From a virus, in IMG/VR virus record IMGVR_UViG_3300042557_000330, positions 1 through 64,000 of that record: DNA of 64,000 nt. The stretch is one strand, 5' to 3'. Positions 3,321 to 6,761 of this stretch are shown here, in pieces (the first letter of the stretch is position 1; the number at the start of each line of letters is the position of its first letter). The translations under genes were made by a program, and so were the position numbers. The notes beneath the pieces were generated by a model that did not search any database, had not been told where the DNA came from, and was given only the letters and a program-made list of their open reading frames with translations.

Positions 3321-6300
3321 ATGCCTTACAGTTTTACCTACTTCAAAGATGAAGTGAAAGAGTGGTTTCTTAACAATGTTCCAACCAGTAAAAGAATACT
3401 AGATGTGGGTCCAGGAATAGGAACCTATTCAGAGTTGTTGCGTTCATCAGGATATAGAATAGATGCTGTAGAAATCTATGAACCTTACATAGAGAAGTAT
3501 AATCTTAGAGAGAAGTATGACAATGTTTACGTAGGAAGTATTATTACATTTGATATTAGTGATTATGACTTCATCATTCTAGGAGATGTCTTAGAACATA
3601 TCCCTACAAACTATGCAAAAGAATTAATCAGAGATATTGTAAGTGCCAAGAAAGAATGTTTGGTAGCCATCCCATATGAAATGGAACAAGGAGAACATGA
3701 AGGTAACATTCATGAGACTCATTACCAACCAGACCTTACACATGAGATGATGGGTGAAAGATATCCTGATCTTAGTTGTATATACAGGAATGAATACTAT
3801 GGCTACTATATGCATTCACTCGTAAAAGAAGAAAAAATGTACGTATTATATGCAAACGCATCTTATTATGATGTTGTTTGTATGGCTGTAGAGAGTATTA
3901 ATAAAGTGAGTGATATTCCTGTGTTAGTATATATGCTAGATGATTATAGAGAGGTGCCTGGTGCATACACTGTATGGTGGAAGTGTGATGTTGAAGACTT
4001 ACCAAAAGAATCTTACATAGATAGAAACAAGAGTGATGTATACAAGTTGTTGATTCAAAGACCTCTTATAGTTAAGGATGCTCTCGAAAGATTTGCTAAG
4101 ACTATATGTTATGTAGATTCTGATTCCATAGCTACTAAGTATGTAGATAGAATATTCAACTACTATCCTACAAGTTCTGAGTTTCCATATTTCACAGAAG
4201 GTATATATGATTATCTATTGATCAATGGTAGAGGTATTGTAATTGGAAGAGAGAACTTACATAAGAGTCTTGAAGCTCCAGCGTGTGAATTGTTTGGTGT
4301 AGATCAATCTATCAGAGATAAGTATAGACAAACTGGTTATTTTGTAGCTGGTCAGAACACTATACCATTCTTAGATGAGTGGAGTTGGATGTGTAATCAC
4401 CCAGAGGTGTTAAAGAACCCACAATACTATGCTCCCTATCACGAAGAGACAATAGTTAATGTTCTGTTATGGAAACATAAGTTCTTAGATGGTCTTCCTT
4501 ATATATACACTAATGCTAGTCTTGATAAGTTTAATAAGATATATGAAGAAAACAATTGGGGTAAGTACATGGAATCATGGTTTAAGTTACCAGCCAGTGA
4601 AGATCAACTGTTCTTCTTACATGGAGAGAAAGATCCTGTAGCAATGTCTAAACTAATATCTAAAATGTCTAAACCTATGAGAATAATGTTCCTTGCTCCT
4701 CACCTGTCAACAGGTGGTATGCCTCAGTTTCTTCTTAAGAGAATACAGTTGTTGAAGCAGTTTAATATTGCAGACATCTGTGTAGTGGAGTATCAATGTC
4801 ATAGCTTAGACTTTGTTGTACAGAGAAACCAGATCATGGATCTTGTGCCTGTACACACATTATATGAAGACAAGATGGAACTTTTTACGGTTATAGACCA
4901 ATTTAAACCAGACATTATACATTTAGATGAGATGTCTGAGAGAATGGATAGAGCAATGATCTCTAAATTATATAACAACAACAGAACTTATAGAATAATA
5001 GAAACGTGTCATGATGTTTCTTTCAAACCAACTATTGAAAAATTATACACACCAGATGCATATGCATTCTGTACACCACATCACTTAGATACATTTAATG
5101 TATCTGGGTATAAAGAGGTTATACAGTTTCCTATTGATCCACAAATACCATCAGCTGCAGAAAAACTACAAGCTAAATTTGAGTTAGGAATGGATAGTGG
5201 TAAGAAACATGTGATTAATGTAGGACTATGGACTCAAGGAAAGAACCAAGGAGAAGGACTAGCACTAGCTAGAAAGCTTCCTAATGTAGAATTCCATTTC
5301 ATAGGTAACCAAGCAGGTAACTTCAAAGACTACTGGGAACCATTGATGAAAGATGTTCCAGATAATGTAACTATATGGGGAGAGAGAACAGATGTTGATG
5401 TGTTTATGAAAGCTGCAGATGCATTCTTATTCAATAGTGTAAATGAATGTAATCCATTAGTATTAAGAGAAGCCATAGGTTATGGCCTTCCTGTGTTAGC
5501 TAGAAACCTTCCTCAATATAAAGATATGTTTACACCGTATATAACAGATCTTGATCCATTCAAGATGAAGAATCAATTAGGTATGTTATTGAACACTGAG
5601 CAAGTGTATGACGTTCCTTATAACAATCAATCAGGTGATTTTGTAAGTGGTCACCAAAAACTATACAGCTACGCAATGTCTGTTACTCCATACAAAAACA
5701 ATGTAAATGATTATAATATAACACAACATTTCGTAGGACAACCATTCTTAGAGATAACTGGTACATCTCAAAGTGATTTTCGTATAGAGTTTTATGATGG
5801 TCCCACTTTAATATATCATGATAATTTAAAGTGTAACCATTGGGTAAAACTTGCTAGAGAGTATTATACACAGTGGAGAACCGTGGTGTATAAAGATGGT
5901 GTGAAGGTGTATGATAAACTTCTAAATCTAGAAGGTAAGAGAGTGTACATTGCTTTTGATAGTTCTTCTCTAGGAGATACTATAGCTTGGATGCCATATG
6001 TAGAAGAGTTTAGATGTGCACACCATTGTGAGGTGATTGTAAGTACATTCAAAAACTTCTTATTTGAAAAAGAATATCCAATGTTAGAGTTTGTTGAGCC
6101 AGGAACCAATGTAACTAATCTATATGCTATGTATAAGATTGGTTGGTTCTATAATGAGAATAAAGAACCTGTTCTTCCTAACACTATTCCTCTTCAGCAG
6201 ACAGCTACAAACATATTAGGTCTTCCTTATAAAGAAATTAAGCCAAGGATTGTAAACAGTAGAATACAGCTTCGAATGAGACAAGTTTCAATAGCTACTA

Positions 6301-6761
6301 ATAGTACAGCAGGATGTAAGTTCTGGACCAGAGAAGCTTGGCAAGAAGTGATTAACTATCTACATGGAGAAGGATACAAAGTGTTCAATACATCATTAGA
6401 AAAGAATCCATTTGACAACTGTCAAGGATTACTTGACAACTCAATGACTAACACTATGACTACTATATATAATAGTAGATTCTTTATAGGACTATCTAGT
6501 GGACTTAGTTGGTTAGCATGGGCATTAGATGTGCCAGTGATCATGATTGCTAACTTCACTGATAAAGATCATGAATTCAAATGCTATAGACCAGTGAATA
6601 CAAATGTATGTCATGGATGTTGGAATGATCCACAGTATAAGTTTGATAAAGGAGATTGGGACTGGTGTCCTGTACATAAAGGAACAGACAGGCAGTTTGA
6701 ATGTCAGAATAGTATTACACCAGACATGGTGATAGAACAAATAAAAAAGCTCCTTAATTAG
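3321..6761 (+). CDS. Four-domain fusion: class I SAM methyltransferase + GT-A-type glycosyltransferase + GT4 (GT-B) + TibC/AAH-like autotransporter O-heptosyltransferase
   Basis: ILDVGPGIG...GDVLEH (MTase); YVDSDS DxD motif; APHLSTGGMPQ...KNQ...ECNPLVLREA (GT4); SLGDTIAW...FIGLSSGLSWLAWA...CHGCWN...WCPVHKGT.RQFEC (iron-binding Cys motif of the TibC/AAH family). Start placed at ATG 3321 rather than TTG 3297. Confidence 0.85.
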   Translation: MPYSFTYFKDEVKEWFLNNVPTSKRILDVGPGIGTYSELLRSSGYRIDAVEIYEPYIEKYNLREKYDNVYVGSIITFDISDYDFIILGDVLEHIPTNYAKELIRDIVSAKKECLVAIPYEMEQGEHEGNIHETHYQPDLTHEMMGERYPDLSCIYRNEYYGYYMHSLVKEEKMYVLYANASYYDVVCMAVESINKVSDIPVLVYMLDDYREVPGAYTVWWKCDVEDLPKESYIDRNKSDVYKLLIQRPLIVKDALERFAKTICYVDSDSIATKYVDRIFNYYPTSSEFPYFTEGIYDYLLINGRGIVIGRENLHKSLEAPACELFGVDQSIRDKYRQTGYFVAGQNTIPFLDEWSWMCNHPEVLKNPQYYAPYHEETIVNVLLWKHKFLDGLPYIYTNASLDKFNKIYEENNWGKYMESWFKLPASEDQLFFLHGEKDPVAMSKLISKMSKPMRIMFLAPHLSTGGMPQFLLKRIQLLKQFNIADICVVEYQCHSLDFVVQRNQIMDLVPVHTLYEDKMELFTVIDQFKPDIIHLDEMSERMDRAMISKLYNNNRTYRIIETCHDVSFKPTIEKLYTPDAYAFCTPHHLDTFNVSGYKEVIQFPIDPQIPSAAEKLQAKFELGMDSGKKHVINVGLWTQGKNQGEGLALARKLPNVEFHFIGNQAGNFKDYWEPLMKDVPDNVTIWGERTDVDVFMKAADAFLFNSVNECNPLVLREAIGYGLPVLARNLPQYKDMFTPYITDLDPFKMKNQLGMLLNTEQVYDVPYNNQSGDFVSGHQKLYSYAMSVTPYKNNVNDYNITQHFVGQPFLEITGTSQSDFRIEFYDGPTLIYHDNLKCNHWVKLAREYYTQWRTVVYKDGVKVYDKLLNLEGKRVYIAFDSSSLGDTIAWMPYVEEFRCAHHCEVIVSTFKNFLFEKEYPMLEFVEPGTNVTNLYAMYKIGWFYNENKEPVLPNTIPLQQTATNILGLPYKEIKPRIVNSRIQLRMRQVSIATNSTAGCKFWTREAWQEVINYLHGEGYKVFNTSLEKNPFDNCQGLLDNSMTNTMTTIYNSRFFIGLSSGLSWLAWALDVPVIMIANFTDKDHEFKCYRPVNTNVCHGCWNDPQYKFDKGDWDWCPVHKGTDRQFECQNSITPDMVIEQIKKLLN

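Follow-up and report, generated by a model that had tools for sequence, protein, structure and literature searches.

The closest described relatives of the enzyme reported here are TibC and AAH of E. coli, members of the BAHT family of autotransporter heptosyltransferases that act on the adhesins TibA and AIDA-I (PDB 4RAP/4RB4). In TibC, Asp-110 is the catalytic base, Thr-226 and Lys-230 hold the beta-phosphate, Trp-305 holds the sugar, and Cys-339, Cys-342, Cys-358 and Cys-370 form a 1Fe-0S iron finger (Yao et al. 2014, PMC4358343). Arg-286 hydrogen-bonds N1 of the adenine, which the same paper gives as the explanation of specificity for ADP-sugars, and the tip of a beta-hairpin thumb (Phe-265/Val-266) builds a dodecamer ring (PMC4358343). 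TibC modifies Ser and leaves Thr unmodified, with sites mapped by mass spectrometry at N-S-G-G and V-S-G-T, and is proposed to slide along the 19-residue single-chain beta-helix of AIDA-I/TibA (PMC4358343). We analyzed a stretch of 64,000 nucleotides (hereafter the window), positions 1 to 64,000 of the IMG/VR virus record IMGVR_UViG_3300042557_000330, which is 73.9 kb long and 64% complete according to CheckV. In the window, a phage gene encodes a four-domain enzyme of 1146 amino acids (aa) whose C-terminal domain is TibC/AAH-like, and a tail fibre with collagen-like Gly-(Thr/Ser)-Ser tracts is encoded nearby on the opposite strand. We consider it probable that the domain is a TibC/AAH-fold protein O-glycosyltransferase from a sister clade of the BAHT enzymes and that it primes Ser glycans on these tracts.

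BimC of Burkholderia is an iron-finger TibC homologue that is encoded beside a protein of the trimeric-adhesin class, BimA, and the distal part of the phage fibre is likewise UspA1/YadA-head-like. The role reported for BimC is to direct BimA to the pole through its transmembrane domain, and not glycosylation (PMC11499645). The BimC-BimA pair also differs from the phage locus in having no collagen tracts. The lipopolysaccharide (LPS) heptosyltransferases WaaC and WaaF (GT9) share the GT-B core with the phage domain, but have neither its beta-barrel nor its iron finger, and their acceptor is a lipid-linked oligosaccharide.

The Thr-rich collagen-like Gly-X-Y tracts of BclA on the Bacillus exosporium carry O-glycans, partly with methylated sugars, and galactosylated Thr stabilizes the triple helix of Riftia cuticle collagen. 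The repeats in both are of the GPT type with Pro, and the glycosyltransferases are different, unrelated or unknown. In contrast, the phage fibre tracts contain no Pro and their conserved position is the Ser before Gly. Phage glycosyltransferases of the GT2/GT4 type reportedly decorate Ser/Thr-rich segments of the phages' own structural proteins in a study of how virion glycosylation influences mycobacteriophage immune recognition, the acceptors being said to be capsid and tail-tube C-terminal extensions of actinophages. That system is not known to involve a BAHT-fold enzyme, a collagen-like acceptor, a methyltransferase fusion or a sulfation cassette. A literature search returned no paper on phage TibC homologues, nor one that links BAHT enzymes to collagen-like proteins.

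Fold and active site of the TibC-like domain

We compared the C-terminal domain (Table 1) with profile and structure databases. The NCBIfam model TIGR04414 (hepto_Aah_TibC) matched it at E 4e-76 and 256.4 bits (258.3 in a second run), above the curated cut-off of 200, whereas the NCBIfam models of LPS heptosyltransferases, whose cut-offs are 185-467 bits, scored it at 13-23 bits (heptosyltransferase I at 23) and Pfam Glyco_transf_9 gave 24 bits. TibC was the only solved relative in a PDB sequence search (E 7e-52). An AlphaFold2 model of the domain, built from a 20-sequence alignment (predicted local distance difference test score, pLDDT, 92.8), superposed on TibC (4rap, 4rb4) with Z 38.9 and a root-mean-square deviation of 2.1 Å over 344 of 348 residues, starting from residue 1 and including the beta-barrel. 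The TibC/AAH assignment of a preliminary description made from the letters of the window was therefore borne out by the hidden Markov model (HMM) search that it had proposed and by the structure prediction. That description had also named grouping with LPS GT9 enzymes as evidence against its assignment. Because the next structural matches, a GT9 enzyme and WaaC/WaaF, reached only Z 18-20 and covered the GT-B core alone, the domain does not group with them, and we rejected an LPS-type GT9 identity on the profile scores and Z values.

The three C-terminal motifs pointed out beforehand were all located in frame in the enzyme open reading frame (ORF). These are LGDTIAW, with its Asp codon at 5976-5978, GLSSGLSWLAWA at 6489-6524, and CHGCWN...WCPVH...FEC, whose four Cys codons are at 6609, 6618, 6666 and 6702. 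For the active site we aligned 77 phage domains with 148 database representatives and the Salmonella plasmid AAH that adjoins AIDA-I. The catalytic and substrate-binding residues of TibC correspond to D886 (Asp-110), T996 (Thr-226), K1000 (Lys-230) and W1064 (Trp-305), and the iron-finger residues C339, C342, C358 and C370 to C1097, C1100, C1116 and C1128. All eight positions are invariant in the 77 phage sequences, so that the catalytic Asp and the Cys4 site of the preliminary description are kept in the sequence alignment. The equivalent of Arg-286 is Thr, T1045 in the window and Thr in 72 of the 77 phage sequences according to sequence alignment, for which phmmer and MAFFT agree. Arg-286 is retained in 16 of 17 autotransporter-linked sequences. 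The thumb region has 22 residues here, whereas its length in the autotransporter-linked clade is invariably 32; Phe-265/Val-266 of the hairpin align to the gap.

By fold and catalytic core, the domain is a true TibC/AAH homologue in which two mechanistic hallmarks are gone. Judged by Arg-286, the thumb and the autotransporter partner, it falls outside strict membership of the autotransporter heptosyltransferase equivalog. It resembles TibC and AAH in its fold with beta-barrel and Cys4 (32-37% identity), in the catalytic Asp, Thr/Lys and Trp, and in the position of its gene beside a highly repetitive, Ser-rich surface protein; its acceptor, too, is probably Ser followed by Gly. TibC and AAH, however, are stand-alone enzymes of ~400 aa, whereas the phage domain is fused to three other enzymes, belongs to a separate clade, has Thr for Arg-286 and a thumb ~10 residues shorter, and is partnered with a fibre that carries collagen-like triplets and no autotransporter barrel.

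Table 1. Features of the window, numbered from its first nucleotide
Feature	Positions	Strand	Remarks
Promoter-like element, Bacteroidota-type -7 (TACCTTTG box)	3292-3299	+	21 nt before ATG 3321
Gene for four-domain enzyme, 1146 aa	3321-6761	+	
S-adenosylmethionine (SAM)-dependent methyltransferase domain, aa 1-172	3321-3836	+	motif I LDVGPGIG
GT-A fold glycosyltransferase domain, aa 173-462	3837-4706	+	DxD D266, D268
GT4-type GT-B glycosyltransferase domain, aa 463-792	4707-5696	+	EX7E at aa 709-717 (ECNPLVLRE)
TibC/AAH (BAHT)-like domain, aa 799-1146	5715-6758	+	N-terminal beta-barrel, GT-B core, Cys4 iron-finger motif
292-aa ORF	6754-7632	-	convergent, 8-nt overlap with end of enzyme gene
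DUF2061 small membrane protein	7634-7852	-	Pfam PF09834 E 3e-19
134-aa HxGH-type nucleotidyltransferase, NMNAT-like	8087-8491	-	Pfam CTP_transf_like; NCBIfam NMN adenylyltransferases
Adenylyl-sulfate (APS) kinase	8475-8939	-	Pfam APS_kinase E 1e-17; NCBIfam apsK E 2.5e-18
Sulfotransferase	8945-9763	-	Pfam Sulfotransfer_3 E 3e-22, Sulfotransfer_1 E 2e-16
Tail fibre, 2286 aa, proposed substrate	10157-17017	-	tail-fibre PHROGs, Pfam Collagen
UspA1/YadA-type head repeats, fibre aa 988-2129 (~1140 aa)	10631-14056	-	PDB matches, periodicity
Region with five proline-free collagen-like Gly-(Thr/Ser)-Ser tracts	14237-16861	-	proposed main acceptor
4580-aa ORF	22390-36132	-	N-terminal 2044 aa (30000-36132) used as query
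Poly-Thr virion ORFs	46098-51407, 54986-55297, 55315-56058, 56073-57647, 58805-59179, 59932-61107	-	

Association with proline-free collagen-like fibres

Collagen was the only Pfam family found in the fibre (PF01391, E 1e-54, 11 stretches), and the Gly-X-Y register is uninterrupted. The five tracts, at aa 53-109, 202-285, 485-535, 548-637 and 715-927, make up 495 aa with globular inserts between them. They consist of 53-61% Ser+Thr without Pro and contain 66 S-G-[GT] sites. The head region contains 18 such sites and 54 [ST][IVLF]xGG (STIGGG/TISGG) motifs, most often spaced 15 residues apart (33 of 53 intervals), and its PDB matches include the UspA1 head (3pr7, E 1e-21; 3ntn, E 3e-6). No membrane anchor was detected in the fibre. 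On this evidence the head is a module shared with the YadA/UspA1 class and not a trimeric autotransporter. The many TISGG/TIGGG repeats of the preliminary description are thus real, but they are of the trimeric-head class and not a beta-helix. We rejected the AIDA-I/TibA beta-helix for them because their period is 15 and not 19 and, among solved structures, the UspA1 head is their closest relative. The head also holds 50 Cys residues, some of them in recurring ECCSFGATIGGG and AITCC[ND]AGRLS motifs, which suggests disulfide-stapled inserts inside the repeat array.

We surveyed the distribution of the domain in phages. Matches were found in 4 of 50,697 deposited phage genomes, none of them annotated as a TibC relative, and no family of the PHROGs library spans the domain. 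IMG/VR holds at least 139 contigs with TibC-like relatives at 53-86% identity. A search of 1.8 billion cluster representatives (50% identity) returned 710 clusters at E ≤ 1e-30. Among the 150 best cluster matches listed, the majority are multi-domain and all 150 score above TibC against the phage domain.

The gene neighbourhood was assessed in 60 phage loci, all chosen for carrying the enzyme and having 3 kb or more of downstream sequence. A convergent ORF with long Gly-X-Y runs is present in 52 of them, within 1.5 kb in 38 of the 52. The collagen tracts of one more locus (L078) lie just past its fetched end, which brings the collagen-linked loci to 53 out of 60. Ser and Thr occupy 66-92% of the X/Y positions in all of the 52 loci except L024 (33%), and Pro is nearly nil. 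Directly before Gly, the median share of Ser is 67% for phage tracts and 73% for bacterial ones. Since Ser predominates before Gly, each triplet offers x-S-G, the context of the mapped TibC sites NSGG and VSGT. Repeats of the SGG type are limited to 7 of the 60 loci, and each fibre that has them carries collagen tracts too. The convergent adjacency of enzyme and fibre is kept across lineages at 53-86% identity.

The pairing is also found in a cultured phage, Microcystis phage Mel-JY01 (PP395634.1). There, a fibre built of Gly-Thr/Ser-Ser triplets and at least 1016 aa long (2-3052, plus strand) lies 1.7 kb upstream of a 1226-aa TibC-like fusion that is annotated as 'methyltransferase FkbM'. The Mel-JY01 fibre is unannotated; at its place the record has, on the antisense (minus) strand at 1-651 and 739-2298, 'hypothetical proteins' that contain PEVP repeats, and the fibre C-terminus is annotated as a separate coding sequence (2519-3052).

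Bacterial relatives and phylogenetic placement

We scanned bacterial genomes, one per species, for the domain, which gave at least 544 relatives, and examined the best 80. Relatives that are ≥ 38% identical to the phage domain often have as neighbours small proteins, secreted or lipoproteins, that consist of GTS or GSS triplets, and none of those among the best 80 has an AIDA-like neighbour. Among the same 80, AIDA-like autotransporter neighbours, which have no collagen-like tract, occur solely at ≤ 37% identity. They were found at 16 loci, in Burkholderia, Pandoraea, Franconibacter, Selenomonadaceae and others.

Trees were computed with FastTree (145 rows) and IQ-TREE (96 rows), and on both a single change is enough to account for the neighbour labels 'collagen-like' and 'AIDA-like'. 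The 17 AIDA-linked rows are all confined to one clade of 23, in which zero rows are collagen-linked. The other 122 rows, on whose side the phage enzyme lies, comprise 80 that are collagen-linked and zero that are AIDA-linked. Of the bacterial-bin loci, 29 of the 57 outside the autotransporter clade are collagen-linked compared with 0 of the 23 within (Fisher p 4e-6). No AIDA-like protein was detected in any phage locus or phage-side bacterial locus examined. On these trees, the phage enzyme is outside the autotransporter-linked clade, in a sister radiation whose members adjoin Gly-(Thr/Ser)-Ser proteins.

The preliminary description had read the locus as an adhesin-glycosylation pair transplanted into a phage. 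This did not hold, given that the autotransporter-linked enzymes form a separate clade and that collagen tracts occur in 53 of the 60 phage loci compared with 7 for SGG repeats; we rejected an autotransporter-pair origin on the tree and neighbourhood evidence. Its proposal of a cis substrate fared better, since the neighbouring fibre is the best candidate for a substrate.

The simplest bacterial arrangement is in Methylobacter luteus IMV-B-3098 (8917-11119 of the locus, L104), where a stand-alone 432-aa TibC-like gene is preceded by the gene of a 287-aa protein with a signal peptide and Gly-Thr-(Ser/Ala) repeats. This two-gene cassette is set among housekeeping genes (queA, mfd, miaB, phoH), between mfd and miaB/phoH.

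Domains fused to the TibC-like domain

The GT4 domain was identified with Pfam Glycos_transf_1 (E 5e-10, 39.6 bits, cut-off 26.4) and Glyco_trans_1_4, and it also matches the glycosyltransferase family phrog_2170 and the PDB structures Cps3D and RfaG. For aa 173-462 there was no match in Pfam or NCBIfam. The AlphaFold2 model of this region (pLDDT 89.9) has as its top Foldseek matches the GT6 enzymes ABO/alpha-1,3-GalT and the catalytic domain of UGGT (probability 1.0, E 5e-7, TM ~0.5). The DxD is invariant across the alignment of relatives, and we assign the domain to the GT-A fold; at an identity of 12-14% to these structural matches, we call it only tentatively GT6/GT8/GT24-like. The N-terminal methyltransferase domain matched Pfam Methyltransf_23 (E 9e-9) and Methyltransf_11 as well as a putative methyltransferase in PDB (3cc8, E 2e-7).

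The 77 phage relatives include the architectures GT4-TibC (15), GT-A-GT4-TibC (32) and methyltransferase-GT-A-GT4-TibC (26). The GT4-TibC core unit is common to all phage relatives, and the GT-A and methyltransferase domains are optional N-terminal additions. This series fits the stepwise assembly of a short, capped glycan.

Phage affiliation, candidate host and sugar donor

The window has a GC content of ~32%. Nearly all of its large ORFs are virion genes on the minus strand, and the enzyme gene is the only substantial plus-strand gene amid these late genes. About one third of the 2044-aa query from the 4580-aa ORF resembles the crAss-like virion RNA polymerase of Bacteroides and Cellulophaga phages at ~25% identity, a similarity that places the phage among distant crAss-like viruses. 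The closest bacterial-bin matches to the TibC-like domain are short contigs in metagenome-assembled genomes (MAGs) of Sediminibacterium and Chitinophaga, at 58-61% identity. The RNA polymerase similarity, a Bacteroidota-type promoter box and these two short MAG-binned contigs are the entire basis of our host assignment, by which this is likely a crAss-like phage of Bacteroidota with a host family that is only a candidate.

Searches of this record and of four relatives that are 98-100% complete detected none of the ADP-heptose pathway genes gmhA, rfaE-I and rfaE-II, so the donor must come from the host. In the Sediminibacterium and Chitinophaga MAGs, gmhA-like and rfaE-II-like genes score close to the cut-offs or above them, and the rfaE-II equivalog is above its cut-off in 28 of 41 sampled genomes of the candidate host family. 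ADP-heptose is thus probably available in that family, and these counts do not support a host that lacks heptose. The preliminary description had doubted ADP-heptose as the donor because many Bacteroidota lack heptose in their LPS core. The 28 genomes leave that argument weak, but its conclusion may hold on other grounds, given the Thr in place of the adenine-reading Arg-286 in 72 of the 77 phage sequences. The 134-aa nucleotidyltransferase was considered as an ADP-heptose synthase, which was not supported. Its best matches are NMN adenylyltransferases, it has no rfaE_dom_II match in NCBIfam, and TIGR02199 finds nothing in the phage.

Proposed function and alternative explanations

Homology, fold, kept catalytic residues, domain order and gene association are observed here, whereas the acceptor, the donor, the sequence of reactions and any consequence for the fibre are inferred. 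The proposed pathway starts with a cytoplasmic four-enzyme fusion, transcribed from its own putative promoter and convergent on the fibre genes. Its TibC-like domain would move the first sugar from a host-supplied nucleotide sugar onto Ser before Gly in the five fibre tracts. The GT4 and GT-A domains would then lengthen the glycan and the methyltransferase domain would cap it. In this lineage, an APS-kinase/sulfotransferase cassette may sulfate the glycan, and the UspA1-like head may offer secondary acceptors in its SGG motifs. A more far-reaching version, which we offer tentatively, is that the TibC-like domain represents an undescribed, widespread sister family of the BAHT enzymes that acts on Ser of Gly-(Thr/Ser)-Ser triplets. 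In phages, such enzymes would use a donor other than ADP-heptose to prime a methylated (here also sulfated) O-glycan that would replace hydroxyproline in stabilizing or shielding the proline-free collagen-like fibre.

If the proposed function is correct, the BAHT enzymes would not be a speciality of pathogen autotransporters but would belong, as one branch, to a much larger family. The targets of its other branch would be Gly-Ser/Thr-Ser tracts, glycosylated both in phage fibres and in proteins that bacteria secrete or carry as lipoproteins. The enzyme would be a first candidate for 'serine collagens' and would give a reason for the existence of proline-free collagen-like fibres. It would also be a new example of a phage decorating its own virion, with a bearing on fibre stability, host recognition and antigenicity. 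Mel-JY01 on Microcystis would offer a cultured phage-host pair, and M. luteus, a cultured bacterium, would offer a tractable minimal two-gene model of the clade.

Several observations weigh against this assignment. The pairing of enzyme and fibre rests on gene neighbourhood, which does not prove an enzyme-substrate pair, and the phage loci were selected by the presence of the enzyme, so that the counts cover fibres beside it. In the window, 3.4 kb of other genes lie between the two. On the collagen side of the tree, 28 of 57 bacterial-bin loci have no Gly-X-Y neighbour within 10 kb, and some of the 'bacterial' contigs are probably binned phage fragments. Within the fibre, the head repeats too present S-G-[GT] sites (18). 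Poly-Thr runs (T5-T9) occur in six other virion ORFs, often at the C-terminus and often after Cys/Pro, and these tags could be equally eligible as acceptors. The substitution of Arg-286 and the lost thumb may leave room for a chemistry or a quaternary structure unlike those of TibC.

The head repeats are the basis of the alternative that survives best, in which the enzyme modifies Ser in the distal TISGG/TIGGG repeats and the two were taken over as an adhesin-glycosylation pair from autotransporter systems. We regard it as rather unlikely. The 54 motifs would provide many acceptors, TibC does modify Ser in N-S-G-G (PMC4358343), the repeat region is homologous to a true adhesin head (UspA1, E 1e-21), and a BAHT member, BimC, is paired with the YadA-like trimeric autotransporter BimA (PMC11499645). 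However, the repeats are present in just 7 of 60 loci, all 7 of which also have collagen-like tracts, and a 15-residue trimeric head repeat is a different scaffold from the 19-residue single-chain beta-helix of the TibC substrate. The enzyme falls outside the autotransporter-linked clade, zero AIDA-like neighbours were seen among bacterial relatives on its side of the tree, and the documented role of BimC is polar targeting and not glycosylation (PMC11499645).

We also consider it unlikely that the enzyme has a target other than the fibre, whether the poly-Thr virion tags, host envelope glycans through chemistry of the LPS-core GT9 type, or host proteins with a resulting change of the cell surface. 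The T5-T9 runs in six virion ORFs and the GT9-related fold are compatible with such targets, and the opposite strand together with a promoter-like box of its own makes a timing apart from the late genes conceivable. Against this, the domain groups with TibC, a protein-modifying enzyme, and has the beta-barrel and iron finger that LPS GT9 enzymes lack, and TibC leaves Thr unmodified (PMC4358343). Moreover, the bacterial relatives pair with Gly-Ser/Thr-Ser proteins and not with poly-Thr proteins or LPS clusters, and the convergent adjacency to the fibre is conserved across the lineages at 53-86% identity. It is nevertheless possible that the poly-Thr tags are further glycosylation sites, although TibC leaves Thr unmodified. 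One of the poly-Thr virion ORFs has a long (TS)n tract.

A non-catalytic domain that binds or chaperones the fibre, as BimC does for BimA through its iron finger, would suit the BimC precedent, the lost Arg-286 equivalent and the shortened thumb, but it is very improbable given that the Asp, both phosphate binders and the Trp are invariant across the 77 phage and ~148 other sequences and that in the phage relatives the domain never occurs without another glycosyltransferase fused to it.

Neighbouring genes and the start of the enzyme gene

The genes between enzyme and fibre include a cassette on the minus strand (7634-9763) of sulfotransferase, APS kinase, nucleotidyltransferase and DUF2061 genes. 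Only 11-13 of 80 related loci have this cassette, which is therefore a lineage-specific addition and possibly modifies the glycan by sulfation. The 292-aa ORF that overlaps the end of the enzyme gene had no Pfam match. It matched NCBIfam heptosyltransferase III below the cut-off (E 4.8e-4), and its comparison with the TibC-like profile by hhalign gave E 0.0025 and a probability of 12% over the C-lobe. From this weak similarity, the ORF possibly encodes a second GT9-like transferase of very divergent sequence.

The ORF list placed the start of the enzyme gene at TTG 3297, which we rejected because this codon forms the end of the TACCTTTG box. As the TTG is part of this conserved box, the gene was taken to begin at ATG 3321. 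TAnnTTTG is not enriched across the window (90 found, 92 expected). Upstream of the enzyme gene, it lies within 60 nt of the first ATG in 40 of 55 distinct upstream regions of related loci, with a modal spacing of 18-19 nt, and we describe the box as a promoter-like element that is conserved among the relatives.

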